A stretch of DNA of 64,000 nt from Oscillospiraceae bacterium (GCA_015065265.1 SVQQ01000001.1:137146-201145); one strand, 5' to 3'. Positions 15,013 through 36,961 are shown, counted from the stretch's first letter. Numbers and translations are program-made. Notes: a model not told the origin generated them from the sequence alone.

Positions 15013-15456
15013 ATGCGAGTAACACAGGAAGCCGATTATGCGATAAGAATTTGCTGTGTGCTTGATGAGGCAGGAAGTATGCTTGGCGCTGAGGACATTG
15101 CCCAAAGGGTAGTAATATCCAAGAGCACCGCCCTTAAAGTTTTGAGAAAACTTCGGCAAGAGGGAATAGTCGAATCCCATAAAGGTTCTGAGGGCGGATA
15201 TCTGTTATCACAGAGCGCCGAAAACCTTACGGTGTGCAAGGTAATTGAGGCGATTGAAGGTAAAATTTCAATTTCAAAATGCCTTTGCGACGAACACCTC
15301 TGTTCTAAGAATGGTGCAAATAAAGAATGTTGCAAAATGCACGTCGCCTTTGCTACTATCAATAAAGCCTTGTCAGAACGACTTTCGGCCATCACAGTAA
15401 AAGACGTTACCGACCCTACGTTATCGTCATTTGATATTATCGAAAAAGTAAAATAA
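15013..15456 (+). CDS. Rrf2 family transcriptional regulator
   Basis: N-terminal winged-helix typical of Rrf2 (MRVTQEADYAIRICCVL...ISKSTALKVLRKLRQEGIVESHKGSEGGY). A Cys-containing region follows (CLCDEHLCSKNGANKECC). Confidence 0.88.
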   Translation: MRVTQEADYAIRICCVLDEAGSMLGAEDIAQRVVISKSTALKVLRKLRQEGIVESHKGSEGGYLLSQSAENLTVCKVIEAIEGKISISKCLCDEHLCSKNGANKECCKMHVAFATINKALSERLSAITVKDVTDPTLSSFDIIEKVK

Positions 15457-15480
15457 TTTAATTTTAAGGAGAAAAAGATT

Positions 15481-16068
15481 ATGAAAAAGTTTGTATGTCC
15501 CGTTTGCGGTTATGTTCACGAAGGAGAATACGCTCCCGAAAAGTGCCCCATTTGTAAAGTACCCGGCGAAAAGTTCAAGGTTATGGAAGAAGGCGCAGCC
15601 CTTGCAGCTGAACACGAATATGGCGTATATTCAAAGACTGTAAAGAATAACCCTGACATATCAGAAGAAGACAAGAAGTACATCTTCGAACAGCTTATGG
15701 CTAACTTCAACGGAGAATGTGCCGAAGTTGGTATGTATCTCTGTATGGCACGTATCGCTCACAGAGAAGGCTATCCTGAAATAGGTCTCTACTGGGAAAA
15801 GGCAGCCTATGAAGAAGCAGAACACGCTGCAAAGTTTGCAGAACTCCTCGGTGAAGACTTAGAACCCAATATGAAAGCCACAACAAAGGACAACTTGAAA
15901 TGGAGAGTTGACTGTGAATATGGCGCAACACAAGGCAAGTTCGACCTCGCTACCTGCGCTAAGAAGAACGGCCTTGACGCAATCCACGACACCGTTCACG
16001 AAATGGCTCGTGACGAAGCTCGTCATGGAAAAGGCTTCGAGGGTCTCCTTAAGAGATATTTTAACTAA
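15481..16068 (+). CDS. rbr: rubrerythrin, 'reverse' architecture (N-terminal rubredoxin-like Cys4, C-terminal diiron ferritin-like domain); its last ~16 codons are supplied by the inserted island
   Basis: [10 protein letters not shown]...CPICKVPG at the N-terminus. Diiron ligand motifs (GECAEVGMY..., [21 protein letters not shown]). The 3' end shares a 17-bp core with the remnant at 46636-46652. Confidence 0.88.
16019..16035 (+). repeat. attL core candidate
   Basis: CGTGACGAAGCTCGTCA inside the rbr coding sequence, identical to 46636-46652. Confidence 0.7.
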
Positions 16069-16142
16069 TTTTAGATACGAAAAAATAAAGTTAAATATCC
16101 TCTGAGAATGGCTTAAAATAAGGCTTTATAAGGAATAATCAC

Positions 16143-16185
16143 GAAACACGATTATCTGATTTTAGATAGTCGTGTTTCTTTTTTA
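16143..16185 (+). terminator. element-borne terminator serving the reconstituted rbr gene
   Basis: Stem GAAACACGA (16143-16151) / TCGTGTTTC (16170-16178) with an inner TATCT/AGATA pairing, followed by TTTTTT. Confidence 0.7.
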
Positions 16186-16206
16186 TTTATATGTATTTTT
16201 CTGTCC

Positions 16207-16229
16207 CGTGGGAAATCCGTGGGAAATGA
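16207..16229 (+). repeat. tandem CGTGGGAAAT pair (putative integrase arm-type sites), left arm
   Basis: CGTGGGAAATCCGTGGGAAATGA is identical to 46549-46571. Further single copies occur at 16319-16329 (direct) and 16257-16266 (inverted, ATTTCCCACG). Confidence 0.6.
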
Positions 16230-16449
16230 GAGAAAAATCGCACGAAAAAAAATAATTTCCCACGAAATCTCTCAAAACGCCCTTGCTACAAGGGTTTTCG
16301 GGGTGTCAAAAAATCGCTTCGTGGGAAATTTTTTCGCCCAAAAATTAAGATTTGGGATTTTTATTTGATAAAATCGGTGTGAAAAATGAGGGAAATTTCA
16401 GCTCCGAAATTGCCTATATTTTAAAATTTTTATTCGGGAGGATATTTTT

Positions 16450-17664
16450 ATGCAAGGAAGTATCAGAAAAAAAGGAGCCACCTGGTCGTACAGAGTTGAG
16501 TTCGGTGCGTCAGGCGGTAAAAGAAATCAGATTGAGAGAAGCGGCTACAAAACAAAAAAGGAAGCTGCAAAGGCTCTCAACGATGTTCTATATCTCTACA
16601 ACAATACGGGCGACTATGTGGAGAACAAGAAAATCACCTTTACCGAGGTCTACACAGAGTTTATCGAAAATGAGGCACCAGCAACAAGAGCCTATGCAAC
16701 CATTGTGCGTTATAAGTCGCTTTACAAGAATCATTATGCGGAAAGATTCGGTAGTTTTTATATGTACCAGATTAACGCAAATATGATAAGCGATTTTCTC
16801 AACGAAAAGCGTACTTATCTCAGTGAGGAATTTGTCAAGGGACTGTATAAGTTTCTGAAAGTGCTTTTCGGATACGCACACAAACGGCAATATATCAAAA
16901 AGGATATTTTCCGTGAGATAACACCGCCACCCGATCCAAGACACAAAGGTGAGATAAGAGCGTACACGCCCGATGAGCTTCGTGCAATGGAACAGCGTTT
17001 GCAGGGGTCTAATGTTATCGTGCCGTTCTATATTGCACTCAATACGGGACTACGTGAAAGCGAGGTCTTTGGACTACAATGGAGCGATATTGACTTTGAA
17101 AACCGCAAAATCAAGGTACATAAGCAGTTATTGTTTCAGGATAAGAAGTGGTGCTTCTGCCCTCTTAAAACTACAAATGCATACCGAAGCGTGAACATCA
17201 CCGACAGCTTTTGTACCTATCTAAAAAATCTCAAAGCCAAGCAAGAGGAAAACAAAGCTTTTTATGGTGACGGCTATAAGCGGAATTTTGTGACGGAACG
17301 CCTTGTGAGAAATAAGGAAAAGCTTATGGAAATCACCGACTTTGTAAATGTCAAAATCAACGGCGAAATGCTTACCACAAACAGTATTAAGTTTATGTCA
17401 AGAACACTTAAAGCTGACCTTGATATACCATTTAAATTCCATAATTTACGGCACACCTACGCTACAGTTCTTGCAGAAAGCGGAATAAGCCCGAGATATG
17501 TACAGGAAACGTTAGGACATTCAAAGCTTGAATTTACGCTCCGCTATTATACCCACATAACAGAGAAAATGGGAGGTATGGCAAGGAAGGCACTTGAGAG
17601 TGCCGTAAGCTTTGCAGCGTTTAACAATGAGGAGGATGAGAATGAGAAAACTATTTGCGAGTAA
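16450..17664 (+). CDS. int: tyrosine site-specific integrase with N-terminal arm-binding (AP2-like) domain
   Basis: 404 aa. The N-terminus (GSIRKKGATWSYRVEFG...GYKTKKEAAKAL) is typical of Tn916/phage-type Int. The catalytic residues are in TGLRESEV (R), HNLRHTYAT (H-x-x-R) and LGHSKLEFTLRYYTH (H...Y). Confidence 0.92.
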   Translation: MQGSIRKKGATWSYRVEFGASGGKRNQIERSGYKTKKEAAKALNDVLYLYNNTGDYVENKKITFTEVYTEFIENEAPATRAYATIVRYKSLYKNHYAERFGSFYMYQINANMISDFLNEKRTYLSEEFVKGLYKFLKVLFGYAHKRQYIKKDIFREITPPPDPRHKGEIRAYTPDELRAMEQRLQGSNVIVPFYIALNTGLRESEVFGLQWSDIDFENRKIKVHKQLLFQDKKWCFCPLKTTNAYRSVNITDSFCTYLKNLKAKQEENKAFYGDGYKRNFVTERLVRNKEKLMEITDFVNVKINGEMLTTNSIKFMSRTLKADLDIPFKFHNLRHTYATVLAESGISPRYVQETLGHSKLEFTLRYYTHITEKMGGMARKALESAVSFAAFNNEEDENEKTICE

Positions 17665-17995
17665 TGCAGTAAAAGAATTTTTAAATGATGCCGATGATAA
17701 GACAAGAAAGAAGATCGGATTTGTGCTTATGTATCTTACTGACGACAAAAATCCGCTGACAGAGCCATATGTAAAACACATTTCAATCGGTAAATACAAC
17801 GACCTATATGAACTTCGTACAAAGGCATCTGGCAATATGGCAAGGATTTTGTTTACACTTTCGGATAAAGATATTGTACTTCTATACGGATTTTACAAGC
17901 ACGACAAAAAGGATAATTTACGAGCATTCGGGAAGGCACACAAGTACTTAAATTGTGACAGCAAAACCGTGATAGATATACATATTTGCTCTTAA
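17642..17995 (+). CDS. Gp49-like / HigB-RelE superfamily toxin-like protein (no cognate antitoxin ORF found)
   Basis: MRKLFASNAVKEFLNDADDKTRKKIGFVLMYL...LYELRTKASGNMARILFTLSDKDIVLLYGFYKHDKK resembles phage-derived Gp49-like killer proteins. RBS GGAGG (17631-17635) favours the ATG at 17642. The gene overlaps the int stop. Confidence 0.6.
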   Translation: MRKLFASNAVKEFLNDADDKTRKKIGFVLMYLTDDKNPLTEPYVKHISIGKYNDLYELRTKASGNMARILFTLSDKDIVLLYGFYKHDKKDNLRAFGKAHKYLNCDSKTVIDIHICS

Positions 17996-18399
17996 AATTT
18001 AAGCAAAAGACCAGGAGAAAAGCACTTTTTTGAAATGTGTTTTTGAAGCTGTATAAAAAAGTCAATTTCTCCTGTTCCTGACACCTCGAAAAGCCTTGTA
18101 TATCAAGGGTTTTGAAACTTAGAATTTTCAAAAAATTAGGTTAGTCGGAGGGTACTGCGGAGGGAGGAGAAATCGGCTCAAAATATGTGCGATTTTATGG
18201 TTCGGGGCATATCCCCTTGCAGGAATTGTGGTTGCACTTACACAGAGGTAAAGCAGTGCGAAAATGCTCCACCTGAGTACAAGTATCGGCGATGCTTTGG
18301 AGAAAAAAGAGAGCGAAGTTGTGCTTGTGCAATATAAGGTGTCGAGGTGTTACAGTCGAATACACAAAACATTGGAGTTAGTAAGGAGGAGATAATTAT

Positions 18400-19215
18400 T
18401 TGTCTGTATTCAGGATAGAAAAAACAAAAGATTATACGGTTATGTCAAACCACCATTTGAGGAATAAAAATCTGTCGCTAAAAGCAAAAGGTCTGTTGTC
18501 GCAGATGCTGTCCTTGAACGACGATTGGGACTTTTCTTTAAAAGGACTTGCCTACATCAATAAAGAGGGCATAGACGCAATCAGAGAGGCTGTCAGAGAG
18601 CTTGAGCGAGAAGGTTACATAGTAAGAGGTCGTGCAAGAAACTCAAAGGGACAGCTTTCGGGAAACGAGTATGTCATTTATGAGTGTCCGCAGACTGTCC
18701 AACCTACATTGGAAAAACCTACGTTGGGAAATCCAACGCTGGACAAACCTATATTGGATAACCCTATGTTGGAAAATCCAACGCAATTAAATACTAATAC
18801 ACAAAATACTGATTCATCAAGTACTGATGTATCAAATATCGAATCACATCCTATTCCTGCCGAGAATGATGTTGAACACAACCGTGATGTGATAAAGGAG
18901 AATATCGAGTACGAATATCTTTGTAAAAATCACCGCAAAGAACAGCTTGACGAAATTGTGGATATTCTCACAGAAACAGTCTCCGGCACAACCGAAACTG
19001 TCCGTATATCTGGCAACGAATATACAAGAGATTTTGTAAAAGATAAGCTTCTGAAACTTCGCTCAGAGCATATTGAGTATGTTCTCGACTGTCTAAAAAA
19101 GAACTCTACAAAAATACGAAACATAAGACAGTATCTCCTTGCAAGCCTTTTCAACGCTCCTTCAACTATTGACAACTACTATGAGGCGGAAGTTAGGCAT
19201 GACTTAATTTTTTAA
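18400..19215 (+). CDS. HTH replication-initiator-like / DnaD-like protein of mobile elements
   Basis: TTG start with RBS AAGGAGG. The N-terminus (YTVMSNHHLRNKNLSLKAKGLLSQMLSLNDDWDFSLKGLAYINKEGIDAIREAVRELEREGYI) matches the winged-helix 'phage/plasmid replication' family seen in Firmicutes MGEs. Internal 15-bp coding repeats give (K/N)P(T/I/M)L(E/G/D) x5. Confidence 0.65.
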   Translation: MSVFRIEKTKDYTVMSNHHLRNKNLSLKAKGLLSQMLSLNDDWDFSLKGLAYINKEGIDAIREAVRELEREGYIVRGRARNSKGQLSGNEYVIYECPQTVQPTLEKPTLGNPTLDKPILDNPMLENPTQLNTNTQNTDSSSTDVSNIESHPIPAENDVEHNRDVIKENIEYEYLCKNHRKEQLDEIVDILTETVSGTTETVRISGNEYTRDFVKDKLLKLRSEHIEYVLDCLKKNSTKIRNIRQYLLASLFNAPSTIDNYYEAEVRHDLIF

Positions 19216-19331
19216 TACGCAATTACCATAATAATGTAAATCATTGACGACTCACAGATACAAAGAAGAATGAGATTTTTGAGATATGGTAAAATATATA
19301 CAGTAAACCAAAACAAAGGAGTTGTCAAACA

Positions 19332-20171
19332 ATGAAAAAAATCACTGAAAAACTTATTAAAAACTTTAGAAATTATCTGATAAACGAAGAGAAGAGCGAC
19401 GCCACGCTTGAAAAGTATATCCGTGATATATGTGCTTTTCTCGCTTGGCTCTGCGGTAGAGGTGTGGATAAACAGACAGTTCTCGAATATAAGGCGTATC
19501 TTATAGAGAACTACAAGCCTACAAGTGTAAATTCTGTTCTGTCCTCTCTCAACAGTTTTTTCACTTTTAACGAATGGTACGATTGTAAAGTTAAATCCTT
19601 AAAGATTCAAAAGCAGATATTTGCTTCCAAAGACAAAGAACTCACCAAAGCCGAGTATGAACGACTACTTGATGCGGCGAAGTCTAAAAAGAATGAGCGG
19701 CTTTACCTATTGATGCAGACTATATGTTCAACTGGTATCCGTGTGTCTGAGCTTCGTTTTGTGACGGTAGCCGCCGTTAATACAGGAGTTGCCAACATCA
19801 ACTGCAAAGGAAAACTCAGACAGGTGTTCTTGCCAAAAGCACTGTGCAAAGTTCTTACACGGTATATACGAGAGCAAAAAATAACAAGTGGCTCCGTGTT
19901 CGTATCCCGAACAGGTAAACCGCTTGACAGAAGCAATATATGGTTTGATATGAAAAAGCTTTGCGAATCCGCTGGGGTTTCAAAGGATAAAGTGTTTCCT
20001 CACAATCTCCGCCATCTTTTCGCTCGCACTTACTATTCGCTTCAGAAAGATATCGTAAGGCTTGCTGATATTCTCGGACATTCCAGTGTGAATACTACGA
20101 GAATTTATACGATGGAAACGGGTGAAGTGCATAAGAGGCAGATTGAAAAGCTGGGACTGCTAAAATGCTAA
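19332..20171 (+). CDS. XerC/XerD-like tyrosine recombinase (candidate invertase for the adjacent switch)
   Basis: 279 aa. It has an N-terminal SAM-like core-binding domain. Catalytic residues lie in STGIRVSEL (R), HNLRHLFA (H-x-x-R) and LGHSSVNTTRIYT (H...Y). Confidence 0.9.
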   Translation: MKKITEKLIKNFRNYLINEEKSDATLEKYIRDICAFLAWLCGRGVDKQTVLEYKAYLIENYKPTSVNSVLSSLNSFFTFNEWYDCKVKSLKIQKQIFASKDKELTKAEYERLLDAAKSKKNERLYLLMQTICSTGIRVSELRFVTVAAVNTGVANINCKGKLRQVFLPKALCKVLTRYIREQKITSGSVFVSRTGKPLDRSNIWFDMKKLCESAGVSKDKVFPHNLRHLFARTYYSLQKDIVRLADILGHSSVNTTRIYTMETGEVHKRQIEKLGLLKC

Positions 20172-20264
20172 AGTGACATAATTCCTATTATGTGGTATTA
20201 ATAACAGCAAAAATCAACTCGAATCTATACAAAATCAATAGAAATAAAAATTTACAGCACGAAA

Positions 20265-20306
20265 AGACCAATGAAAAATTTTAAAGTTACATTGGTCTGT
20301 TTTGTT
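20265..20306 (+). terminator. hairpin terminator inside the invertible segment
   Basis: Stem AGACCAATG (20265-20273) / CATTGGTCT (20290-20298), followed by GTTTTGTT. Confidence 0.6.
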
Positions 20307-20349
20307 ATGCCTTAATTTGTAAAAAGTTTGTGTAATATTATGTAAATCA

Positions 20350-20378
20350 TTGACTTAAAACGCATTTTGTGGTATGAT
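20350..20378 (+). promoter_or_regulatory. sigma-A type promoter inside the invertible segment (currently ON-oriented toward 20463)
   Basis: TTGACT (20350-20355), a 17-nt spacer, TG-n-TATGAT (-10 at 20373-20378). Confidence 0.65.
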
Positions 20379-20462
20379 AAACAAATAAAGTTATATTTAT
20401 ATTGCCTACAACAAAATGACAATACCACATAATAGGAATTACGTAATGGAAAGGATGTATCT

Positions 20463-21041
20463 ATGAGAAAAGACGAATATATGATGCTGCGTGAAGAAAT
20501 GATGTTTAATCAAAAACGCCAGGATAGCATAACGCAGTTTACATATACAACAACTGTTGCAATATGGGCAGCCGCCTTAACAGTAAACAATGCCTGGATT
20601 GTTTACTCGTCATTGTTTATGATTTTGTTAATGACTATGAGAATATCTAATTGTAGAAGGTGTATTGCTTTTTTAGCAGGATATATGAAAGTAGCATTAG
20701 AACCCGATTTGGATTTACAATGGGAAACAAAAAGCTTTGATTATTATGAAATAAACAAAAGAACCACTTCTGAATGGCTATTATATGTGGGTTCAAAATT
20801 CGATTTTCCAATACTTAGCATTATAAGTTCACTATTGTTTTGGGGGCTTCGAGATTGGAAATTTATGATATATAATTCCGTGCTTTTGTCGCACATCACT
20901 TTATTTATTCAAATATTTATTATAGTTTTTGAAATGCTTTTATACTTCAAGTATTCAAGTGTTGCAACAATAAAGAAAAAACTGATTAAGAACTGGGAGA
21001 TTGTTCAAAAAAATGAAAAAGAATTTAGTTGCATTAAGTAA
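20463..21041 (+). CDS. small polytopic membrane protein, unknown function (first gene downstream of the switch)
   Basis: 192 aa with about 4 hydrophobic segments (TTTVAIWAAALTV, IVYSSLFMILLMTM, FPILSIISSLLFWGL, LSHITLFIQIFIIVFEMLLYF). It overlaps the next gene. Confidence 0.6.
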   Translation: MRKDEYMMLREEMMFNQKRQDSITQFTYTTTVAIWAAALTVNNAWIVYSSLFMILLMTMRISNCRRCIAFLAGYMKVALEPDLDLQWETKSFDYYEINKRTTSEWLLYVGSKFDFPILSIISSLLFWGLRDWKFMIYNSVLLSHITLFIQIFIIVFEMLLYFKYSSVATIKKKLIKNWEIVQKNEKEFSCIK

Positions 21042-24000
21042 AGTATATGATGTGTGGCACAAAAGAGTTTTGTCACTATTGTTGGCTGTAGTTATGGTTG
21101 TTGGTATGATTCCAATTATATCGTTGCCTGTTAGTGCAGCAAGTATTGATGTGTTAAGGGAAAAATATCCCGATGGAAGATATTGGAATGGGGGTGATCC
21201 TTATAAAACAACATCTTCCCCATGTACTCATCACAAAAACTGCAGGGTATCTGGCGGATGTGGATGTAACGCATATACATACAATGGTTCAGGATATGCA
21301 ATTCAATGCATGGGTTTTGCATACCATTTACAGCAAGAAATATATGGAGGACATCCTTATAGTTGGGCTGAAAATAGAAACTATGATTCAGCAATGACAA
21401 AACTAGCTTCTGGAGATGTTATAAGATATGGAGGGCATAGTGTTTTTGTTGTATCTGTTTCTGGTGACACCGTTATAATTGCCGATTGCAACAGATATAA
21501 TGGCGAGTGCAAAATTCGATGGGATGTTCCATATAAAAAAAGTGATTTCAAAAGCTCTTTTCAATATGTAACACATGGTCTTTATGATGCAGGCGGAACA
21601 TATGTGCCTGCACCAGCACCTACACCCAACCACAGTTGCGGTAGTTGTGTTTCTATAAACAAAACTGGTTCTGTCACCGCTGCGGTTAATATAAGAACGA
21701 GTCCTAGTACATCAGGAACTCTTATTGGTGAGTTTAGCACAGGAACGAGCGTAACAATTAGTGCAAAATGCGGAAATTGGTATCTTGTTAAAAATTCAGG
21801 AGGAACAAGCGGCTGGGCTCATGCAAATTATATTAAGGTAAAGGAAAGCACAAGTTCAGGACACGAGTGTAGCAATTGCGTTTCAGTAAACAAAAGTGGA
21901 ATTGTTAAAGCTGATGTGAATGTAAGAAGCGGACCGGGTACTTCATACACATTTCTTTTTGAGTATTATACAGGAACAGATTTGAGCATCTCTGTGGAAT
22001 GTAACGGATGGTATTTTGTCAGCGATGCCGGAGGCAATTCTGGATGGGTTGCAGGAAATTTTGTCAAAGTTGATTCAACTCATTATCACGATTATGTCTG
22101 GAATTACGAAGCTGCTCACCCACACAGAGAATATGTAAAGTGTTCGTGTGGAGACTACGAATATACTGGTGAAAACTACTTTGATAAAATTTATTCAACG
22201 GAAAACGAGTATGCACATCCACATAACGAATATAAAATTTGCGGTATTTGCGGACAAACAGAATATACAGGTGCAACAAGATATGTAGATAGCTGTACAA
22301 CTTGTAATCCACCCCATACACACAGTTATACAGCCTACCATGAAGGTGTGCACCCGCACAGAGAATATATGAAGTGTTCTTGTGGAGACTATTACTATCT
22401 TGACTCATATTACTATGATAGTAGCTGTACAACCTGTAATCCGCCACATACACACAGTTACACGACATATCACGATGCTACGCATCCTCACAGAGAATAT
22501 AAAAAGTGCTCATGTGGAGACTCTTATTATCTTGATTCCTATTACTACGATAGTGGTTGTACAACCTGTAATCCACCCAAGTACACCATAACGTTTGATG
22601 CTAACGGTGGTAATTGGAGTGGAGGAAATCTCATCAAAACGCACGATGTGAATGTGACCATTCCCAATGCTTACCCCACCAGAACCGGATATACGTTCCG
22701 AGGGTGGTCCACAAGTCGAAATGGGACTATTGCGTATTTTGGCGGGGAGACATATACAACAAACAGCAGTATCACCCTTTATGCTGTATGGAAAGCAAAT
22801 ACATATACTATCAAGTATAACGCTAATGGTGGCAGTGGAAGTATGTCAAATTCATCTCATACATATGATACTGCCAAGGAACTTACTGCAAATACATTTA
22901 CAAGAACTGGATACACTTTTAAGGGCTGGTCGACAAGTTCTTCTGCAACAAGTGCAACATATACAGATAAACAGTCTGTTAAGAATCTTACGTCAACGAA
23001 TAGTGGCACTGTAAATTTGTATGCAGTATGGCAGGCAAATACATACACCATTACCTATAATGCAAATGGCGGTAGTGGTACTATGTCTAATTCGAGCCAT
23101 ACATATGATGTCGAGAAGAAACTTACATCTAATGCGTATGCGAGAGCTGGATATCATTTCAAAGGATGGTCAACAAGTGCGTCGGGTACGGTGGTATATA
23201 CAGATGAACATATGGTAAAAAATCTTTCCAGTGTAGCTAGCGGTAATGTGACTCTGTATGCCGTTTGGGAACCAAATACATATGTTGTTGATTTTTTTGA
23301 CGGTGATGAAAAGTGTCATTCAAAAACGGTTACTTATGGCCTGGAATACGGGGCACTTCCGAACAAATACAGTTCCATTGGCGAATTTTTAGGTTGGTAC
23401 ACGGATAAAAATGCCGGCGAAAAAGTTACAAAGGATACCATAGTAACAGCGCTGTCAGATCATAAATTGTATGCTAGGTGGCATATTCGTGTGGCCAATG
23501 TAACAATTAACAATACATATGCTTCGCTTGAATTGGGCGACACAACACAACTTGTTGTAGGATTTATTCCTAGTAACGCAACAAATAAAGAGGTGATTTG
23601 GACCTCCTCAAACGAAAATGTTGCTACAGTTACAAAAGATGGGTTAGTTAAAACTCTTTCAAGAGGAACGGCAATAATAACTGCAACAACAGTTGACGGT
23701 GGTTTTACAATTACATCTACTATCGAAGTATATGGCACTACCGTCACATATGATACAGACGGTGGAAGCAATTGCCCGCCAAAGCAAATTAAACAACCAA
23801 ACGTTCCACTTCGTGTTACAGATATTATTCCTGAGAAAAAAGGATTTATATTTAGCGAATGGCATTATATTTACTACGAAGGCTCTACCCAAATTATCAT
23901 AGGATATCGTCCAGGAGAAGTTATAAAACAAACAGGGGATATTGTACTTGTGGCAAGCTACTCGTCTAAGGAATATACAGTGCATTTTGATTCTGCTGGT

Positions 24001-25728
24001 GGAACATCATCTGTATCTGAAGCTACTGTGAGGTATTATTATCGCTATAAAAATCTTCCGACGGCGACGAAAGAAGGATATAAGTTTATGGGGTGGTTCA
24101 CACAACCTGTAGGAGGAGAAGAGATTACAGAAAAGTCCTATGTATTAATTGCTGAGGACCATACGCTGTATGCACAGTGGGAGCCTATAACATATACAGT
24201 TAAGTACAACGCCAACGGTGGAAGTGGAACAATGTCAACTTCTTCTCACACTTACGACGTCGAGAAAACTTTGTCGGTCAATGCTTTTACAAGAAGCGGA
24301 TATACCTTCCTTGGTTGGTCAACTGATCCTTCAGCAACAAGTGCTACATATACTGACAAACAATCTGTAAAGAATCTTACATCAACAAATAATGGTTCAG
24401 TTACTCTGTATGCTATATGGAAAGAAGAAAACCAAGAAACATATCAAATTGAAATTTGGGTTACTGACGGTGATAATACAGAAGAAATTATGTTGACAAA
24501 AAAGAAGGGAGATATAATAAATCTCAGTGATTACAAACCGAAACAGACAGGATACACTTTTATTGCTTGGGTTGATTTAAGTACTAATGAAAGTTACTCT
24601 GCTAATGATAAATTTGTTGTAACACGAGATACGCTTCTCGTATCCGGTATGCAAGCAAATTCCTATATTGTTTATTTCGATGCAAACGGAGGCGTTGTAA
24701 CTGAAGATCTAAAATCCGTTAAATTTGATTCGGCATATAGCCAACTTCCAACACCTACAAGAAACGGGTACACATTCGAAGGTTGGTTTACAGAACAAAA
24801 TGGCGGAGAGAGAATAACAGCCGACACAGTAGTTAAAACACCCACAAATCACACTATATATGCTCATTGGAGTCAAGATGTTCAAATCATTTCTCCATCT
24901 GCAGTATCTCTTAATAAAACAAGCACTACGCTAACAGTTGGAGATACAGAAACCCTTACAGCAACAGTAACTCCAAGCAACGTAACAAACAAAACTGTTA
25001 CTTGGATTTCATCAAATACAAATGTTGCAAGCGTTTCAAATGGTGTTGTTACAGCAAAAGCGGCAGGTACAGCCACAATTACTGTAAAGACCGCAGATGG
25101 AAACAAAACAGCAACTTGCGTTGTTACAGTAAATGCTATTGATGAAGATATGCCGTCTCTTAAAATTGACGATATTACTGTGGCACCGAGCGAAGATTTT
25201 TATGTAGATATTGTGGCTGAAAACTGCGACTCAGTTAAGGCAATAACTGTGAATGATATTGAATACAGCGAATCTTTAACATTAACAAATGCAGAATGGT
25301 TATTGTCAGGTTCTACACTCAGTTCTGTCGACATAAACGGAGATTCGCTTATTGCTTTCCAGAACGCAGTTGATGCAAACAAAGCTGTTATGCGACTGTA
25401 TTTTACTGCAGACAGCGAGGAAACAGATGGAGATGCTTACATCCGTTACAAAGCGATGGGAACTGATGCATCTAATAAAAACTTCGACTTTGTTGAGTAT
25501 GAAGGCAAAGTAACCATTAGAAGTTTCATTATTGGTGATTGCGACGGTGATGAGGAAATCACAGTAGATGATGCGATTTATCTTGCATTCTATACATTCT
25601 ATCCGAGCAGATATCCTCTTCCAACCGGTATGAATGTAGATTTTGACAAAGACGGAGCAATCACAGTAGATGATGCGATACACCTTGCTTTCCACACATT
25701 CTACCCGGATAGATATCCATTAAATTAA
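21013..25728 (+). CDS. giant secreted protein: CHAP-like cysteine amidase/peptidase, 2x SH3b, Cys/His-rich repeats, ~10 Listeria-Bacteroides (Flg_new) repeats, 2x Big_2, cohesin-like module, C-terminal dockerin
   Basis: Signal peptide (LLLAVVMVVGMIPIISLPVSA). CHAP-like Cys/His motifs (YAIQCMGFAY ... YGGHSVFVV). SH3b units (VNIRTSPSTSGT..GNWYLV; VNVRSGPGTSYT..NGWYFV). Repeats of the form YTITFDANGG...GYTFxGWST...LYAVW. Big_2 units (LxVGDTxxLxATVxPSNxTNKxVTWxSSN). Dockerin F-hand pair DCDGDEEITVDDAIYLAF / DFDKDGAITVDDAIHLAF. The start is taken as ATG 21013; the track ORF starts at TTG 21001. Confidence 0.85.
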   Translation: MKKNLVALSKVYDVWHKRVLSLLLAVVMVVGMIPIISLPVSAASIDVLREKYPDGRYWNGGDPYKTTSSPCTHHKNCRVSGGCGCNAYTYNGSGYAIQCMGFAYHLQQEIYGGHPYSWAENRNYDSAMTKLASGDVIRYGGHSVFVVSVSGDTVIIADCNRYNGECKIRWDVPYKKSDFKSSFQYVTHGLYDAGGTYVPAPAPTPNHSCGSCVSINKTGSVTAAVNIRTSPSTSGTLIGEFSTGTSVTISAKCGNWYLVKNSGGTSGWAHANYIKVKESTSSGHECSNCVSVNKSGIVKADVNVRSGPGTSYTFLFEYYTGTDLSISVECNGWYFVSDAGGNSGWVAGNFVKVDSTHYHDYVWNYEAAHPHREYVKCSCGDYEYTGENYFDKIYSTENEYAHPHNEYKICGICGQTEYTGATRYVDSCTTCNPPHTHSYTAYHEGVHPHREYMKCSCGDYYYLDSYYYDSSCTTCNPPHTHSYTTYHDATHPHREYKKCSCGDSYYLDSYYYDSGCTTCNPPKYTITFDANGGNWSGGNLIKTHDVNVTIPNAYPTRTGYTFRGWSTSRNGTIAYFGGETYTTNSSITLYAVWKANTYTIKYNANGGSGSMSNSSHTYDTAKELTANTFTRTGYTFKGWSTSSSATSATYTDKQSVKNLTSTNSGTVNLYAVWQANTYTITYNANGGSGTMSNSSHTYDVEKKLTSNAYARAGYHFKGWSTSASGTVVYTDEHMVKNLSSVASGNVTLYAVWEPNTYVVDFFDGDEKCHSKTVTYGLEYGALPNKYSSIGEFLGWYTDKNAGEKVTKDTIVTALSDHKLYARWHIRVANVTINNTYASLELGDTTQLVVGFIPSNATNKEVIWTSSNENVATVTKDGLVKTLSRGTAIITATTVDGGFTITSTIEVYGTTVTYDTDGGSNCPPKQIKQPNVPLRVTDIIPEKKGFIFSEWHYIYYEGSTQIIIGYRPGEVIKQTGDIVLVASYSSKEYTVHFDSAGGTSSVSEATVRYYYRYKNLPTATKEGYKFMGWFTQPVGGEEITEKSYVLIAEDHTLYAQWEPITYTVKYNANGGSGTMSTSSHTYDVEKTLSVNAFTRSGYTFLGWSTDPSATSATYTDKQSVKNLTSTNNGSVTLYAIWKEENQETYQIEIWVTDGDNTEEIMLTKKKGDIINLSDYKPKQTGYTFIAWVDLSTNESYSANDKFVVTRDTLLVSGMQANSYIVYFDANGGVVTEDLKSVKFDSAYSQLPTPTRNGYTFEGWFTEQNGGERITADTVVKTPTNHTIYAHWSQDVQIISPSAVSLNKTSTTLTVGDTETLTATVTPSNVTNKTVTWISSNTNVASVSNGVVTAKAAGTATITVKTADGNKTATCVVTVNAIDEDMPSLKIDDITVAPSEDFYVDIVAENCDSVKAITVNDIEYSESLTLTNAEWLLSGSTLSSVDINGDSLIAFQNAVDANKAVMRLYFTADSEETDGDAYIRYKAMGTDASNKNFDFVEYEGKVTIRSFIIGDCDGDEEITVDDAIYLAFYTFYPSRYPLPTGMNVDFDKDGAITVDDAIHLAFHTFYPDRYPLN
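22294..22580 (+). repeat. 132-bp tandem coding repeat (about 2.2 copies; more diverged copies from ~22081) encoding a Cys/His/Tyr-rich 44-aa unit
   Basis: Units start at 22294, 22426 and 22558. The unit is CTTCNPPHTHSYT(A/T)YH(E/D)(G/A)(V/T)HPHREY(M/K)KCSCGD(Y/S)YYLDSYYYDS(S/G). Confidence 0.85.
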
Positions 25729-25760
25729 AAGATTGGAGAATATATAAATGAAAAGATTTT
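25241..25760 (+). repeat. ~520-bp direct repeat, copy 1 (3' end of gene 21013-25728, the intergenic region, and the first 13 nt of a gene start)
   Basis: It reads identically to 28970-29489 (offset 3729). The encoded C-terminal residues and the reverse-strand track ORFs 25306-25695 / 29035-29424 are identical. Flanking homology with scattered mismatches extends upstream to about 25090 / 28820. Confidence 0.85.
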
Positions 25761-25848
25761 GGAGTTTGATAAAGCCAAATTCATCGTAAAAGAAGCATGT
25801 GTAGCTGAAAACAATTTATTTTAACAACAGATCAGGAGTTTAATAAAA

Positions 25849-28800
25849 ATGAAAAATAATTTTAAAAAACTGCTTGCTGCAATACTTGTTATAACTATGG
25901 TATTGCCGGGAATCACTGTTTTTGCAGATGATACAACTTATAGTTGTATGGAAACAAAGTACATATCTGTAGTTACTGGTAACGGAATTCTACTTTCTCC
26001 AAGTTTAACATTCAAATGTGATGCTGCCAAAGAATTTGGTTCCGATGGAATAAGCAATTATGCACCAATAATGCAATTAACAATTTATAACAATGACACC
26101 AAGGAAACTACTTACGCAAGAATTACGGGTACCGGTGCAAGTATTAGTAGTACATTAAAGCTTGAAGATAACTCTAGTTATATAGTAACTGTATCGTATA
26201 TATATGACGAATCCATCAATAAGAATGCTTTTAAAGTAGGCGGTGGTGATGGCTGGGCTGACGGCGACTGGTGGATATCTTCCACTAACAATATTAATAG
26301 TTACACTGTTTCATCAACTAAACCTTCCATAGAAACATCTGGCGGAACGGGAGATAATCAGGAAGATGAAGAGGATACACAACAAGAATCTAAGCCTTCG
26401 TATTATGCTACATGGAAAGATTTGCCATTAAATAAAACAGATACATATTATAAATATTACTTTGATCCTAGTGTAAATCCTTATTTCCCATATAATGCGC
26501 CTTACTCTCCTAACTATCCAAGTGAATACAAAAAGGATAGCGAGGGCGAGTATGTATATGGAAATTGCACATGGTATTGTTGGGCAAGAGCAAGCGAAAT
26601 GCTGGTAAGAAATGGAAAGAATCCGCTTACAAAAAGCCAACTTATAAGCAATCCGTCAGGTTGGTTTAATTGTGCAGGCGGATTGAGTTATGATAAAAAA
26701 ACATCTGCTGTTCCAAAAACAAACAGTATAGCAGTTTATCAGGGTCATGTAAGATACATCGAATATGCAGACAGCAATTATTTAATCTATTCAGAATCCG
26801 GATATCGTGATACTAATGATTATGATTATGACATGAAGACAACGGATCCGTTTAATGGTGGCAAACCTACCTGGCTATGCTACGGTGTTGGAACTGCAAC
26901 TAAAAACAGTTCCGGCAAATGGGTTTCAACTGGAAATTGGTCTTCTATATATGGTTTTGAGGTTGGAAGCGGAAGCGGAGATTCAAAACTGTTGGGGTAT
27001 ATTTATCTGAATGTAGATTCAATAAATGATGAAAATGCTCCCACTATAAATACAAACCTTGTTTCAAACTCATCTAAGAGCAGTTATACAACAGATGAAA
27101 ATGTTACCATAACATGGAATACTTATACGGGTGCGTCTTCTTACGGACTTACAATTTCTCGCAAGACAGGTTCTTCTTGGACATCGCGTGAAACAGTATA
27201 TGATAAAAACGGCTTGACTGGAAATTCTGTTAATATTGGTAAACTACCTGTAGGTGAATATCGCTTTAATATGGGTGCATACAGTAGCGGTGGTTCTCTT
27301 TTGGGAGATTATAGTGAACTTAAATATTTTACTGTAGTTGGTACATCTGGTGATGAGTCAAATGAAGACAGCACAGATCTTTACCCATATTCTTCTGCAT
27401 ATAAGAGCAGCAAATATTATACAGCATTAAACAATGTAGAGATGACTGGAGAAGAAGCTTCAGACCTCGTAAATGTTGCTTTGTCACAAGTTGGTTATCA
27501 TGAGGGTAACAGTACCTCAGAGCTTGATGGTTCAAACACTTCGGGAACTAACAATTATTCGGAATACGGATATTGGTTCGGAACACAGGTTAAAGGAAAT
27601 ACAACTGGGCATTTTTATGATTGGTGTGCTATGTTTGTAAGCTGGTGTGCAAGACATGCGGGAATATCAACAAGCACTATAAGCAATTCAGCATATGCTG
27701 GGGCAAGTAATGAAATCTATCACTTTTCAAACTTATCTTATTTCAGCAGAGGAAACGGGACACCTAAAAAAGGAGATTTAATATTTTTTGATAATCCAAA
27801 CGTGGATGGACAGTGGGATCATGTTGGAATTGTTGAATCTGTTACCTCTACACAAGTAAATACGATTGAGGGTAATGCTAACGAGCAGGTAAAAAGAAAA
27901 ACTTATAATTTGACCGATACATACATTCAGGGCTATGGAAGACCTAACTATAAGAATAGTTCTGTTGAAGATAGTACACAGTGGGGTGATTGGAGCGATT
28001 GGTCTACAACAAAACCTACTGCAAGCGATACTGTACAAGTGGAATCTAAAACACAGTATGGTTACTACCACTATATTTTACAATATTCAAATGGAAATTG
28101 TGGTGCATATCCTATTGATGCAACAACATTCAATAAAATTTTCCCAAGTTACCCCACAACACAAAAAGATTATCATACAAAATATTTTGATTCTCAATTA
28201 AGTAAAATTGATACGCTTACTTATAACGGCACAACATATAATTGTTATGCAAATACTTGCTGCCCTGATTCATATAACTATGACAATGGTTCAAATGCAA
28301 GTTATTTCTATAATCTTGGCACTCGCACTGTTTATCGCAGCAGAACAAAACTTTCAGAGACAATTTCTGTAAATAGTGTGACTTTAAATAAAAATTCGGT
28401 GACATTGGAAGTAGGAGCAACCGAATCTCTTACAGCCACAGTTAAACCAAGCAATGCAACAAACAAAGCAGTTACATGGACTTCATCAAATACAAGTGTT
28501 GCTAGCGTTTCAAACGGAGTTATTACAGCCAAAGCAGCAGGTACGGCTACAATTACTGTTAAAACCGCAGACGGCAACAAGACGGCTACTTGTACTGTCA
28601 CAGTGAAGACACCGACAGTTGCAGTAACAGGTGTTTCACTCAATAAGACTGCCACTACTCTGACAGTTGGAGGAACAGAAACTCTTATAGCGACAGTTGC
28701 ACCAAGCAACGCAACAAACAAAGCTATCACATGGACCTCATCAAATCCAAGTGTTGCTTCAGTTTCGAATGGTGTTATTACCGCAAAGGCGGCAGGTACA

Positions 28801-29457
28801 ACAACAATTACCGCAACAACGATTGACGGAAATAAAACAGCAACTTGTGTTGTTACAGTAAATGCTATTGATGAAGATATGCCGTCCCTGAAAATTGACG
28901 ATGTTACTGTGGCACCGGGCGAAGATTTTTATGTAGATATTGTGGCTGAAAACTGTGACATGGTCAAAGCAATAACTGTGAATGATATTGAATACAGCGA
29001 ATCTTTAACATTAACAAATGCAGAATGGTTATTGTCAGGTTCTACACTCAGTTCTGTCGACATAAACGGAGATTCGCTTATTGCTTTCCAGAACGCAGTT
29101 GATGCAAACAAAGCTGTTATGCGACTGTATTTTACTGCAGACAGCGAGGAAACAGATGGAGATGCTTACATCCGTTACAAAGCGATGGGAACTGATGCAT
29201 CTAATAAAAACTTCGACTTTGTTGAGTATGAAGGCAAAGTAACCATTAGAAGTTTCATTATTGGTGATTGCGACGGTGATGAGGAAATCACAGTAGATGA
29301 TGCGATTTATCTTGCATTCTATACATTCTATCCGAGCAGATATCCTCTTCCAACCGGTATGAATGTAGATTTTGACAAAGACGGAGCAATCACAGTAGAT
29401 GATGCGATACACCTTGCTTTCCACACATTCTACCCGGATAGATATCCATTAAATTAA
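25849..29457 (+). CDS. giant secreted protein: two CHAP domains, FN3-like module, 2x Big_2, cohesin-like module, C-terminal dockerin
   Basis: Signal peptide (LLAAILVITMVLPGITVFA). CHAP 1 (GNCTWYCWARASEM ... VYQGHVRYIEY). CHAP 2 (YDWCAMFVSWCARHAG ... WDHVGIVESV ... TIEGNANEQV). The C-terminal residues are identical to the end of the preceding protein. Confidence 0.85.
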   Translation: MKNNFKKLLAAILVITMVLPGITVFADDTTYSCMETKYISVVTGNGILLSPSLTFKCDAAKEFGSDGISNYAPIMQLTIYNNDTKETTYARITGTGASISSTLKLEDNSSYIVTVSYIYDESINKNAFKVGGGDGWADGDWWISSTNNINSYTVSSTKPSIETSGGTGDNQEDEEDTQQESKPSYYATWKDLPLNKTDTYYKYYFDPSVNPYFPYNAPYSPNYPSEYKKDSEGEYVYGNCTWYCWARASEMLVRNGKNPLTKSQLISNPSGWFNCAGGLSYDKKTSAVPKTNSIAVYQGHVRYIEYADSNYLIYSESGYRDTNDYDYDMKTTDPFNGGKPTWLCYGVGTATKNSSGKWVSTGNWSSIYGFEVGSGSGDSKLLGYIYLNVDSINDENAPTINTNLVSNSSKSSYTTDENVTITWNTYTGASSYGLTISRKTGSSWTSRETVYDKNGLTGNSVNIGKLPVGEYRFNMGAYSSGGSLLGDYSELKYFTVVGTSGDESNEDSTDLYPYSSAYKSSKYYTALNNVEMTGEEASDLVNVALSQVGYHEGNSTSELDGSNTSGTNNYSEYGYWFGTQVKGNTTGHFYDWCAMFVSWCARHAGISTSTISNSAYAGASNEIYHFSNLSYFSRGNGTPKKGDLIFFDNPNVDGQWDHVGIVESVTSTQVNTIEGNANEQVKRKTYNLTDTYIQGYGRPNYKNSSVEDSTQWGDWSDWSTTKPTASDTVQVESKTQYGYYHYILQYSNGNCGAYPIDATTFNKIFPSYPTTQKDYHTKYFDSQLSKIDTLTYNGTTYNCYANTCCPDSYNYDNGSNASYFYNLGTRTVYRSRTKLSETISVNSVTLNKNSVTLEVGATESLTATVKPSNATNKAVTWTSSNTSVASVSNGVITAKAAGTATITVKTADGNKTATCTVTVKTPTVAVTGVSLNKTATTLTVGGTETLIATVAPSNATNKAITWTSSNPSVASVSNGVITAKAAGTTTITATTIDGNKTATCVVTVNAIDEDMPSLKIDDVTVAPGEDFYVDIVAENCDMVKAITVNDIEYSESLTLTNAEWLLSGSTLSSVDINGDSLIAFQNAVDANKAVMRLYFTADSEETDGDAYIRYKAMGTDASNKNFDFVEYEGKVTIRSFIIGDCDGDEEITVDDAIYLAFYTFYPSRYPLPTGMNVDFDKDGAITVDDAIHLAFHTFYPDRYPLN

Positions 29458-29489
29458 AAGATTGGAGAATATATAAATGAAAAGATTTT
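28970..29489 (+). repeat. ~520-bp direct repeat, copy 2
   Basis: See 25241-25760. Identity runs through the stop codon, the RBS (GGAGAA) and ATGAAAAGATTTT of the next gene. Confidence 0.85.
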
Positions 29490-32400
29490 TAGGACTTATA
29501 CTTGCTTTAGTTTTAATGTTAACCATGCTTCCCTTTGTGACAGCAGCATCTGTACCCACTATGACAATGTCAAGTAGTAGTGGGCATGATATAGGAGATA
29601 CTGTTCCATTAACTATCTCGTTCGATTATGGTGAAAACAAAATAAAAAGTATAGCGATGGACAGCTTTACATACGATAAAGATGTTTTAAAATTAGATTC
29701 ACTTAGTTGGGAAATAGGAGGATTCCTTTCTTCTACTGATCCTGATGGGGATTCACTTATTGCTTTCACATCTGCTACAAAGGTTAGCGGTGTTGTTATG
29801 AAAGCGGAATTTAAAGTAATTGGTAAAAATAGTGATTTAACCCAAGAAATCACATTTAATTCTTTGGTAACACCTGAAACCGGCAGTAATATTACTGTCG
29901 CAGTTACAGGCGGTGTAATTACACTTAATCCTACAGAACTTACAGGTAAACAAACTGTAGCTATTACTGCTCCTGTTAAGGGTGCAACTCCTCAGAGCAC
30001 AATTGCTGCAGGTACAGGTTATACTGGAACAATTTCTTGGGAAGGTAATCCCACAAAATTCGCAGCTAACACTGTTTATGCTGCTAATATCACATTAACA
30101 GCAGCATCCGGATATATCTTTGGTAATGATGCAACAGGTAATGTTGCCGGTGCAACAATTACAAACAATTCTGTTTCAAATGACGGCAGCAAATTAACAT
30201 TTAAGGCTACATTCCCTAAAACTTCAGGCAAAGATACCCCTATTTGCGTTGCACCTGCAAATGTTACAGCAACATACGGTCAGACTTTAGCTGATATTAC
30301 ATTTAACAATCCTTCGGGCAATACAGAGGGTACATGGAGCTGGATGACCCCATCCACCACTGTTGGAAATGCCTCTGCAACACCTAAGAATTTCAAAGCA
30401 AAGTTTGTTCCTACGGATAGTGATAATTATCTGACTGTTGAAAACATTGATGTTCCTGTTACTGTAAACGCAAAGAACATTACCGTATCTGTTGCAACAA
30501 TTTCTGATCAGGAATATACCGGTAGCCAGATTAAACCTACTGTTACAGTTACAGGCGACGGCAAGACATTAGTACTTAATACTGACTACACTGTTGAATA
30601 CGGCGACAATGTAAATGCAGGAGAAAATGCTGGCTTTGTTACCGTTAAAGCAAAAGAAAATGGCAACTATACTTTTGAAAATGCTGTGAAGAACTTCAAC
30701 ATTGTTGCACAGGCTGGTACAGTTTCAATCAGCGGTAATTTGAATGTTCCCTTTGGTACAGCAGTACCTGATGTAACTATCAATAAAAATGGTAGTGACG
30801 GTGCAACAACCACTTATTACTACACAAATACAGCTTGCACAGAAGGTAAAACAACAACAAAGCCTACTGCAGCAGGCAACTACTGGGTACAGGTAGAAAT
30901 GGCAGCTGGTACAAACTTTGGTGCTGCTGTAAGTAATGCTTTGAGCTTTACAATTTCTCGTGCAGATATTACTCCGGAAGTTACCATTACAGGCTGGACA
31001 TATAAGACTACAGCGAATGATCCTTCTGTTACAGGTAACACCGGAAACGGTTCTGTAACATATAAGTATAAAGCAAAGACTGATGCAGATTCAGCATACT
31101 CAACTACAGTTCCTACAAATGCAGGTGAATATACTGTAAAGGCAGAAATTGCCGAGACTTCAAACTTCAACGCTGGTTCTGCAACAGCTAATTTCACAAT
31201 TGCTCCTAAAGTACTCGATGATACAATGGTTGCAGCAACAATAGCACCACAGGATTACACAGGAAACGAAATTAAGCCTACTCCTACTGTTACATATGGT
31301 ACAGCTCTTGTAAACAATACAGACTTTACCTACGGTTATGAAAATAACACTTATGTAGGAACAACTGCAAAGGTAACGGTTATTGGTAAAGGCAATTACA
31401 GCGGAGAGGTTGATAAAAACTTCAGCATTACCGCAATTGACCAGACACCTGCTATTACAGCAACAGCATCCGTAACCAAGGGTGGCAACACAGTTGATTT
31501 GAACCCTCTCGTTGCAAACGCTAAGGGCGATGTAAGCTTTACAATTTCCGGCGAAGCAAATGGTTGCACAATCGACAATGGTGTTCTTACATCCGGCGAA
31601 AATTCCGGCACAGTAAAAATCAATGTTGCTATCACTGCAAAGGATGTTAACGGTGACACAGTTAACGAGTATAATGCATACTCCCTCACAGACGCTATCA
31701 CCGTTACAGTAAACGACAAAGAAACGCAAGATACACTCAATATCACAAGTGCTACAACAGTTACTTATGGTCAGACACTTACACTTACGTCAAGTGGTGG
31801 TAGCGGTACAGGTGCAATAACTTATGCCGTAACAAATGGCACAGGCGAAGCAACAATCGAAGGTAACATTCTTACTCCTTCTAAGGTTGGTACTGTAACT
31901 GTTATCGCAACAAAGGGTGAAGATGAAACATACAATAGCATCTCAAGTGCTCCTGTTGTTATCACAATTGAAAAGATTAAAGTTGCTATCCCTGCTGAAG
32001 ATACAATAACATATACCTACACCGGTACAGAGCATACATATCAGATTGCTGAAAATGCTGCATACACTATCGTAGGTAATAAGCAGACAAATGCTAATGA
32101 GGCAGGATATCCTGTTACTGTAACACTTAACGATACAGAAACACACGCTTGGGCCGATGATTCTATCGAGGCAAAGAATTACACATTCATCATTAATAAG
32201 GCTACAATCACTGTTGCTGCTAAAAATCAGCAAGTATATGTAAATGGTACAGCTCCTGTTCTTGGTACTGACGATTATACAGTAACCGGTCTTGTAAACG
32301 GTGAAACACTTAAAACTGCTCCTACAATTGAATATGAAACGACTCCTGACACAAGTGCTACTGGAAGCGTTGTAATTAAGATTTACGGTGCAGAAGCTCC

Positions 32401-33328: not shown

Positions 33329-33360
33329 AACCACACTCTGAAAACAGGGTGTGGTTTTTG
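33329..33360 (+). terminator. terminator of the surface-protein operon
   Basis: Stem AACCACACTCTG / CAGGGTGTGGTT (one mismatch), followed by TTTTG. Confidence 0.75.
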
Positions 33361-33537
33361 ATTTAATAATACTATTAGAATGTTTCTTCAATATGCCAAG
33401 AATTAAAATAATAAAAACTACTATATACCTTTTTAAGAGATATATGCCTAAGTAGTTGGCTGTATCCCTCGTTTTTTATGCAATAAGCTCATATTTAAAG
33501 CCTTTATTTAAAAGAATGTTAAATTTGTTATTCGTTG

Positions 33538-36801: not shown

Positions 36802-36804
36802 ATT

Positions 36805-36848: not shown

Positions 36849-36961
36849 ATGTAAATACAAAGACAGGCCTGACAATATGCTGGGTTCGACTTTGCGTGTT
36901 TTGGTTAATCGTTGAAGAGGAAAAGCAAAAATCATAATGTTAAATTAATTCCATCACAGAA

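Follow-up and report, generated by a model that had tools for sequence, protein, structure and literature searches.

The fimS element of Escherichia coli is an invertible promoter segment of about 300 bp with 9 bp repeats, which is turned by the FimB and FimE recombinases, and the expression of fimE depends on the orientation of the segment. Here we describe a locus that is very probably a phase-variation switch of this type, found in a 64,000-nt stretch of Oscillospiraceae bacterium DNA (SVQQ01000001.1, positions 137146 to 201145; the whole stretch is referred to as the window): a recombinase-driven invertible promoter, at present in its ON orientation, that faces an operon for giant surface proteins. 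Our account rests on the anatomy of the locus, the conservation of its parts in a family of related loci and the presence of both orientations at sister loci. The fimS switch is summarised in PMC8844915. In Clostridioides difficile, several RecV switches (cmr, cwpV, flgB) are served by one distant, unlinked recombinase; these are the studied examples in Clostridia, and the cmr switch holds a promoter (PMC8844915, PMC5903667). In the hCom2 survey, inverton group 139 with invertase group 35 (32/33 in Clostridia) was verified by reads and lies in nearly all cases by a tyrosine recombinase; the same survey lists 13-nt repeats around 228 bp in Intestinimonas butyriciproducens DSM 26588 (1750639-1750893) and 25-nt repeats around 206 bp in Clostridium sp. 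D5 (3525576-3525832), and reports that inverton orientation shifted with passage and surface attachment (PMC11892184).

Inverted repeats enclose a hairpin and a predicted promoter

By searching the window for repeats, we found two inverted repeat (IR) arms of 24 nt, the left one (IR-L) at 20176-20199 and the right one (IR-R) at 20421-20444, which are 96% complementary with a single mismatch and leave 221 nt between them. Their perfect 21-nt part (20179-20199 and 20421-20441), which a preliminary description of this DNA had placed at the same coordinates, occurs at only two places in the 64 kb, and matches of this 21-mer were seen in 0 of 100 dinucleotide-preserving shuffles. An inverted repeat pair, as in known invertible promoters, is thus present, and so, by prediction only, is a promoter on the segment between the arms. 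The elements of the switch, in window positions, are as follows.

19231 to 19295, plus strand: conserved 5' end of the cassette, with a AAATCATTGAC box at 19238-19249 and an extended -10 element, TGgTAAAAT, at 19287-19295; presumed recombinase promoter
19332 to 20171, plus strand: tyrosine recombinase open reading frame (ORF), Xer-like, 279 aa; presumed invertase
20176 to 20199, no strand: IR-L, dif-like core ACATAAT-TCCT-ATTATGT (20176-20193) plus the inner extension GGTATT
20200 to 20420, no strand: invertible segment, 221 bp; the window orientation is the ON orientation
20262 to 20310, no strand: hairpin, GACCAATG...CATTGGTC, with an A-run on one side and a T-run on the other
20350 to 20378, plus strand: switch promoter, TTGACT-17-TGgTATGAT, with its -10 element at 20373-20378
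20421 to 20444, no strand: IR-R, inverted copy of the site; its outer half-site is ACGTAAT, not ACATAAT (the one mismatch)
Predicted inverted junctions of the window allele: ...TATGTGGTATT joined to GTCATTTTGTTG... and ...GCTGTTATT joined to AATACCACATAA...; in the other written form, ...TATGTGGTATT joined to GTCATTTTGTTGTAGG... and ...GATTTTTGCTGTTATT joined to AATACCACATAATAGG...

The hairpin that had been noticed inside the segment was recovered at 20262-20301, with a fold energy of -15.8 kcal/mol (z = -2.5), and is followed by UGUUUUGUU (TGTTTTGTT). On the opposite strand it folds equally well (-15.1 kcal/mol); the U-run lies 3' on the plus strand, and there are only four U on the other. 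The preliminary description had supposed that flipping puts the terminator in antisense, which does not hold for a hairpin that folds on both strands. In either orientation the hairpin lies between the recombinase gene and the operon, and it probably acts as a terminator in both directions that blocks read-through from the one into the other in both states. An Rfam scan of 19.0-21.2 kb showed no RNA family in the switch; its sole match, to a snoRNA, was below the threshold and fell within the first operon gene.

The promoter, also described before, faces the operon that begins at 20463. It shares the top score (10/12) in the 18.8-21.2 kb region and is the only top-scoring match there with a TG extension; transcription is expected to start near 20385 in the ON state. 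The ATG of the first operon gene (20463) lies 18 nt past the 24-nt IR-R arm.

Besides the two true sites, two one-mismatch matches to CATAAT-NNNN-ATTATG are located within coding regions at 22081-22096 and 33998-34013, with the centres CACG and TACA; in total 4 matches were seen in the window vs 0.33 expected by chance, 2 of them being the true sites. The near-matches at 22081 and 33998 are probably due to chance, and might conceivably serve as cryptic partner sites.

The neighbouring gene encodes an Xer-like tyrosine recombinase

The recombinase is identical to MBE6700393.1, from a Ruminococcaceae/Oscillospiraceae metagenome-assembled genome (MAG), and its homologues number thousands. It matches Phage_integrase (PF00589) at 1.6e-29, above the cut-off, and has a SAM-like N-terminal domain. 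The R...K...H-x-x-R...H/W...Y catalytic domain of the tyrosine recombinase superfamily is present with R137, K161, H224, R227, H250 and Y259, which align to XerA 4a8e; R137, H224, R227, H250 and Y259 are invariant in 118 homologues (K161 was outside this tabulation). The closest solved structures are XerA 4a8e and XerD 1a0p. The NCBIfam equivalog scores stay below their cut-offs for XerA (144 vs 220 bits), XerD (133 vs 330 bits) and XerC (115 vs 335 bits), and the same is true of the FimB/FimE-type invertase models NF007370 (34 vs 221 bits) and NF007371 (25 vs 222 bits). The protein is Xer-like in the broad sense only.

The gene ends immediately before the switch. In this respect the preliminary description was right about the adjacency and slightly off in the distance, as the 24-nt IR-L arm begins 4 nt and the perfect 21-nt arm 7 nt past the stop codon, and not 6. 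The recombinase and the switch were found side by side in every related locus, which suggests that the adjacent enzyme is the invertase.

The 19231-19295 block is kept 5' of the recombinase in sister loci that have unrelated upstream genes. Part of it, 19231-19248, is repeated directly at 20337-20354 (18 nt, 17/18), so that the recombinase upstream region resembles the -35 region of the switch promoter. The AAATCATTGAC box is 40 nt from the extended -10 element, too distant to be its -35, and may instead mark a second promoter or the site of a regulator. The recombinase gene reads into the switch, and one may speculate that its expression therefore varies with orientation, as that of fimE does.

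Related loci keep the parts of the switch and occur in both orientations

For a census we took the DNA around the exact protein and ten close homologues and scored every locus; a protein-seeded metagenome scan gave five useful relatives, and most loci were obtained via exact-protein look-ups. About 14 related loci (recombinase 76-97% identical) show the same layout after the recombinase gene. Where the switch is complete, the recombinase stop is followed after 3-15 nt by a core ACATAAT-NNNN-ATTATGT, and the inverted copy of this core lies 215-260 nt further. The DNA between the cores includes an A-rich stretch and a hairpin with a T-run after it; close to its far end stands a promoter of the form TTGAC[AT]-N17-TGnTAnnnT, at the same relative position in every related switch. 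The hairpin has been kept with compensatory (double) changes in 5/9 pairs. The core centres comprise 8 tetranucleotides (TCCT, TCCA, TGAA, TCTT, TTCT, CACA, TACA, TCTC), and the arms of one locus always match, as expected of a tyrosine recombinase crossover region, where both partners must match.

To look for the alternative orientation, we used a 24-mer that joins IR-L to the reverse complement of the right inner end. This OFF-junction query had two matches among species-representative genomes, both in Eubacteriales MAGs (L004 and L005), whose recombinases are 96% and 88% identical to that of the window and end a few bases before the same kind of repeat. Their inner segments (89-93% identical to the window) are wholly reverse-complemented, which turns the promoter towards the recombinase gene. 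The island of the window is also present in L004 (88% nucleotide identity to window 15444-18429), where the segment is reversed, and L004 therefore represents a close relative of the window element in the OFF state.

Four sister loci, with recombinases 92-97% identical to the window's, were assembled in both orientations from different samples, between identical flanks. The P0015 locus, in the order pheT, recombinase, switch, and Band_7/zinc-ribbon and FtsK/FHA genes, was found in eight assemblies with the same recombinase protein, of which L022 and L025 are ON and L020, L021, L023, L024, L026 and L028 are OFF. By comparing their 227-nt inner segments, we found 226/227 positions identical after reverse-complementing, and one base differs in the compared downstream flank. 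The few variable bases that border the cores on the inside change arms upon inversion, which confines the crossover to the 18-nt core. The P0123 locus, whose cargo includes TadZ-like and T2SSE pilus genes, was seen 3 times ON and 3 times OFF. Samples with the P0015 and P0123 loci include the XIEF21-1 series, ERZ27256761 and ERZ27256764. The P0124 and P0127 loci have three sites and appear in several arrangements, and their promoters were seen both ON and OFF. Some contigs have a 16-nt piece between two sites on the left, and others have it on the right in reverse complement, which is the outcome that consecutive inversions between different pairs of sites would give.

Three-site switches (L035-L041, L073-L075, L080-L084) have two direct copies 16-17 nt apart on one side and one inverted copy on the other, and resemble a miniature shufflon. 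L075 shows two copies on both sides, maybe as a scaffolding artefact.

An assembler error is an unlikely cause of these arrangements, because reads and assembly k-mers are much longer than the repeats (18-26 nt). Another explanation would be that the repeats are the ends of a small mobile element (MITE-like, or an Xer 'dif module') or island attachment sites, and that the orientations reflect independent insertions. The sites do look like dif, the locus sits on an integrative island of about 30 kb, and the cassette has been mobile over evolutionary time, with varied genomic contexts. However, at the four loci with both orientations the flanks are identical, the positions agree to the base and the inner segment matches at 226/227; neither target-site duplications nor empty sites were seen; and the island has its boundaries elsewhere (16.0-16.2 kb and 46.5-46.7 kb) and its own arm-type integrase. 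A scan of a viral collection with the degenerate core pattern returned 3 single-site matches without a recombinase nearby, which we judged to be chance. We therefore regard independent insertions as extremely improbable. Taken together, it is very likely that this family of switches inverts and that the window shows the ON state. The recombinase-driven invertible promoter proposed in the preliminary description is thereby upheld, by the sister loci in both orientations, the OFF copy on the related island, and contig ends on site boundaries (see below); the repeats, with hairpin and promoter, are also kept at homologous loci.

Proposed mechanism and state of the window allele

We propose that the Xer-like tyrosine recombinase (19332-20171) binds the two inverted dif-like sites, with half-sites ACATAA and TTATGT around TTCCTA, and that strand exchange in the asymmetric central region would flip the 221-bp segment. 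In the ON state, the promoter at 20350-20378 would read through IR-R into the 13-kb operon, which would end at 33329-33362. In the OFF state, its transcripts would run antisense into the recombinase gene from the 3' side, and the hairpin would separate promoter and operon. The hairpin would stop transcripts from the recombinase gene in both states, so that the operon would depend on the switch promoter, its presumed main promoter as judged from sequence.

The segment might also invert and exert its control in another way, by termination or anti-termination in a leader, as for C. difficile cwpV, or by self-regulation of the recombinase. A conserved hairpin does lie inside the segment, read-through from the recombinase gene into the switch is possible in principle, and the OFF promoter would be antisense to that gene. 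Nevertheless, the strong extended -10 promoter is kept at the operon-proximal end in every ON relative and flips with the segment, while the hairpin precedes the promoter in the ON state and therefore cannot stop its transcripts. The hairpin also seems two-directional, which argues against an orientation-specific terminator. Such control is in our view highly unlikely, and we retain the promoter flip.

Signs that both orientations co-exist in single samples came from contig ends. Where contigs end within about 500 nt 3' of the recombinase stop, 6/23 do so exactly on the last base of the core site, which is where an assembly graph must fork if the site is followed by two sequences. Samples with the exact window allele include JGI 3300032167, 3300031555, 3300018494 and 3300022661 and ENA ERZ27248314 and ERZ27248370. 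For this allele, the only sign of mixture is the cargo-side contig L063 (150 kb, sample 3300032167), whose first base is also that of IR-R (20421); L003, from the same sample, ends inside the switch at window position 20305, and this end and the start of L062 (20319) are off the site boundaries. Breaks of metagenome contigs at or inside the switch are very frequent; examples are L003, L004, L027, L036, L041, L063, L072, L076, L079 and L083. Such breakpoints could reveal invertons in assemblies for which reads are not at hand.

Several points limit this reading. Its exact allele was ON in 8/8 of the assemblies found and never OFF, the exact OFF-junction 24-mer was without a match in the JGI metagenome collection, and IR-R has its mismatch in the outer half-site. 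The co-existence of both orientations in one population is deduced only from contig break positions, and it is strict adjacency only that singles out the neighbouring gene product, and not an enzyme acting in trans, as the invertase. The promoter, the terminator and the operon structure are predictions; there are also weak promoter-like matches inside the operon, and therefore some switch-independent expression is possible.

The first three of these points, together with degenerate and evidently locked relatives (L031-L034, which lack IR-R, and L007, with 17 nt between its sites), would fit a family that inverts and a window copy effectively fixed ON, either a fossil or a switch with very rare flipping, in front of a constitutive operon. 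We consider this unlikely. Every assembly of the window allele has the same intact recombinase ORF with its catalytic residues in place; both sites are intact at 23/24 positions, and an assembly shows the majority orientation only. The ACGTAAT variant of IR-R also occurs in one arm of the P0123 locus, which was found in both orientations, so the mismatch is unlikely to disable the switch. In addition, the start of L063 at IR-R is the signature of an assembly fork from two upstream alternatives. The ON orientation and the facing operon given in the preliminary description are supported, and the window's own copy, on indirect evidence, probably still flips.

A cassette that precedes different operons

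Homology between the loci starts about 105 nt 5' of the recombinase start, with the AAATCATTGAC box and then the extended -10, and ends at IR-R. The recombinase gene, the promoter region before it and the switch therefore make up one portable unit, a cassette of about 1.25 kb. It does not include the first cargo gene, for which the sister loci lack a homologue. Sister cassettes are located next to pheT, ara genes, a Big_2 protein gene or a resolvase/YpsA pair and are not tied to islands. The preliminary description had called such a switch on a mobile island unusual, which was too strong, since gut Clostridia (PMC11892184) and C. difficile (PMC8844915) are known to have invertible promoters next to tyrosine recombinases. 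That this copy lies on an island is incidental, as sister cassettes sit in ordinary chromosomal contexts (pheT, ara genes).

In related rumen and gut Oscillospiraceae the cassette precedes many different surface or secretion operons. The cargoes comprise scaffoldin-like cohesin/SLH proteins (10/10 contigs OFF), TetR-like and VWA proteins (all ON), Tad-type pilus genes, an FtsK/FHA secretion ATPase cluster, and the giant CHAP/SLH wall proteins of the window. A tentative and still doubtful extension of these findings is that a self-contained phase-variation cassette of about 1.25 kb has been copied before many unrelated surface and secretion operons of rumen and gut Oscillospiraceae, the private centres maybe keeping paralogous switches apart so that each operon flips independently. 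If this were true, the cellulosome-like display on the surface of these fibre degraders would be subject to phase variation.

Some family members deviate from the common layout. L031-L034 (3840-3945) have IR-L and a reversed promoter without IR-R and run into the ORF of a dockerin protein; they seem to be truncated or locked in the OFF state. L007 has a pair of inverted cores separated by 17 nt, with neither promoter nor hairpin.

Two cultured species carry more distant relatives, each with a recombinase about 52% identical. In Monoglobus pectinilyticus (L086, 3311-3606) the core is the same, and 22-nt perfect repeats lie 252 nt apart. In Pusillibacter faecalis MM59 (L085, 3324-3643; pMM59_01, about 430.3-431.0 kb) different 26-nt repeats (GACAAAAACAACATTT...) lie 268 nt apart, and the switch has a second direct repeat copy and stands 5' of a 4.5-kb SLH protein gene.

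The operon and its island

The operon consists of four genes on the same strand (20463-33313, 13 kb). Terminator-like sites on the plus strand within this range amount to a single weak one, inside the ORF of the third gene. The start of the first giant protein gene (21013) is that of the gene call in L001 and overlaps the preceding gene. Genes and signals of the operon and of the left end of the island are listed below.

16450 to 17664: arm-type integrase, left end of the island
18400 to 19215: DUF6017/HTH_36 protein, left end of the island, where there is also a Gp49/HigB-like ORF
20463 to 21041, plus strand: first operon gene, 192-aa hydrophobic protein without a family match; ribosome binding site GGAAAGGA just past IR-R
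21013 to 25728, plus strand: giant surface protein 1, about 1571 aa; SH3, Listeria-Bacteroides repeats (Flg_new), Big_2 and a C-terminal EF-hand-like repeat pair
25849 to 29457, plus strand: giant surface protein 2, 1202 aa; CHAP peptidoglycan hydrolase domains, Big_2 and the same C-terminal repeat pair
29477 to 33313, plus strand: giant surface protein 3, 1278 aa; Listeria-Bacteroides repeat and three SLH cell-wall anchoring domains
33329 to 33362, plus strand: operon terminator as read from the sequence, hairpin AACCACAC...GTGTGGTT and then the T-run TTTTGATTT

Giant proteins 1 and 2 share a C-terminal pair of repeats of about 30 aa (GDCDGDEEITVDDAIYLAFYTF..., at 25528-25718 and 29257-29447), and the DNA of the first repeat (89 nt) is 100% identical between them. 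These repeats look dockerin-like, which would fit the cohesin/SLH cargo of sister loci; a low-threshold Pfam search of the cargo proteins left dockerin and cohesin unconfirmed and gave a weak EF-hand only (E about 0.008).

The switch locus is part of an island, about 30.3 kb long, whose insertion point is the 3' end of a rubrerythrin gene. Its likely boundaries are marked by an exact 23-nt direct repeat, CGTGGGAAATCCGTGGGAAATGA, at 16207 and 46549, and the rubrerythrin 3' end (16008-16084) is duplicated at 46635-46711 with 78% identity. There are no tRNA genes in the window, and therefore the island is not tRNA-targeted. Its downstream part (34189-43334) contains genes that resemble defence or conflict systems: a PNP_UDP_1-like and P-loop protein (870 aa), AAA_14/DUF4143, a PRTase-CE and ORC-CDC6-like pair (38467-41338) and an N6 DNA methylase (42264-43334).

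Comparison with known systems

These findings imply that an uncultured rumen or gut Oscillospiraceae bacterium can switch a 13-kb block of giant wall proteins that includes a peptidoglycan hydrolase and whose products are likely targets of phages and of recognition by hosts or competitors. Surface heterogeneity in these poorly studied fibre degraders may be common, and strain variation or contig breaks at such loci in metagenomes may be phase variation. The core ACATAAT-NNNN-ATTATGT offers a simple search handle, and the related switches of the cultured Monoglobus pectinilyticus and Pusillibacter faecalis allow tests of the mechanism. Our literature search found no paper on rumen-bacterial invertons or on phase-variable cohesin/cellulosome systems.

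The E. coli dif site, GGTGCGCATAA-TGTATA-TTATGTTAAAT, provides one point of comparison. The recombinase is most similar to XerA, XerD and XerC, and its site has inverted arms ...CATAA and TTATG... around a 6-bp centre, a layout that resembles dif. In contrast to the Xer/dif system, there are two inverted sites 221 bp apart and no single terminus site, the outcome would be promoter inversion and not chromosome dimer resolution, and the protein scores far below the XerC, XerD and XerA cut-offs. The PsrA/CreX invertases of hsdS shufflons are likewise small Xer-like tyrosine invertases by their repeats; one protein annotated as PsrA shows 30% identity across 95% of the query, and the three-site sister loci behave as small shufflons. 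Those systems invert coding segments to change enzyme specificity, whereas the window switch inverts a non-coding promoter segment.

With fimS the locus shares a short invertible promoter segment that drives a surface operon in one orientation, and a recombinase gene upstream that reads toward the switch. Unlike fimS, it has one recombinase instead of two, which is not of the FimB/FimE type, and 24-nt repeats with a dif-like core vs repeats of 9 bp, and its host is a Gram-positive-type Clostridia bacterium; nor did signs of accessory IHF/Lrp sites turn up, for which no search was made. The RecV switches agree with it in being Clostridia systems with a tyrosine recombinase, segments of about 150-200 bp and repeats of about 21 bp, located 5' of surface or signalling genes, cwpV encoding a large cell-wall protein; this comparison is one of architecture. 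The window switch differs from them in having its own adjacent recombinase, and cwpV and flgB act after the transcription start (terminator or Rho), not by a promoter flip.

The closest report is probably inverton group 139 of the hCom2 survey, which resembles the window switch in its dimensions and recombinase adjacency. That group comes from human-gut isolates, whereas the window family comes from uncultured Oscillospiraceae/Eubacteriales MAGs and the Monoglobus and Pusillibacter relatives at about 52% identity. The invertible promoter described here is real and well supported, and as a kind of device well known, so that it extends established biology; what goes beyond the ordinary is the portability of the cassette, the locus-specific site centres, the three-site variants and the range of surface systems.

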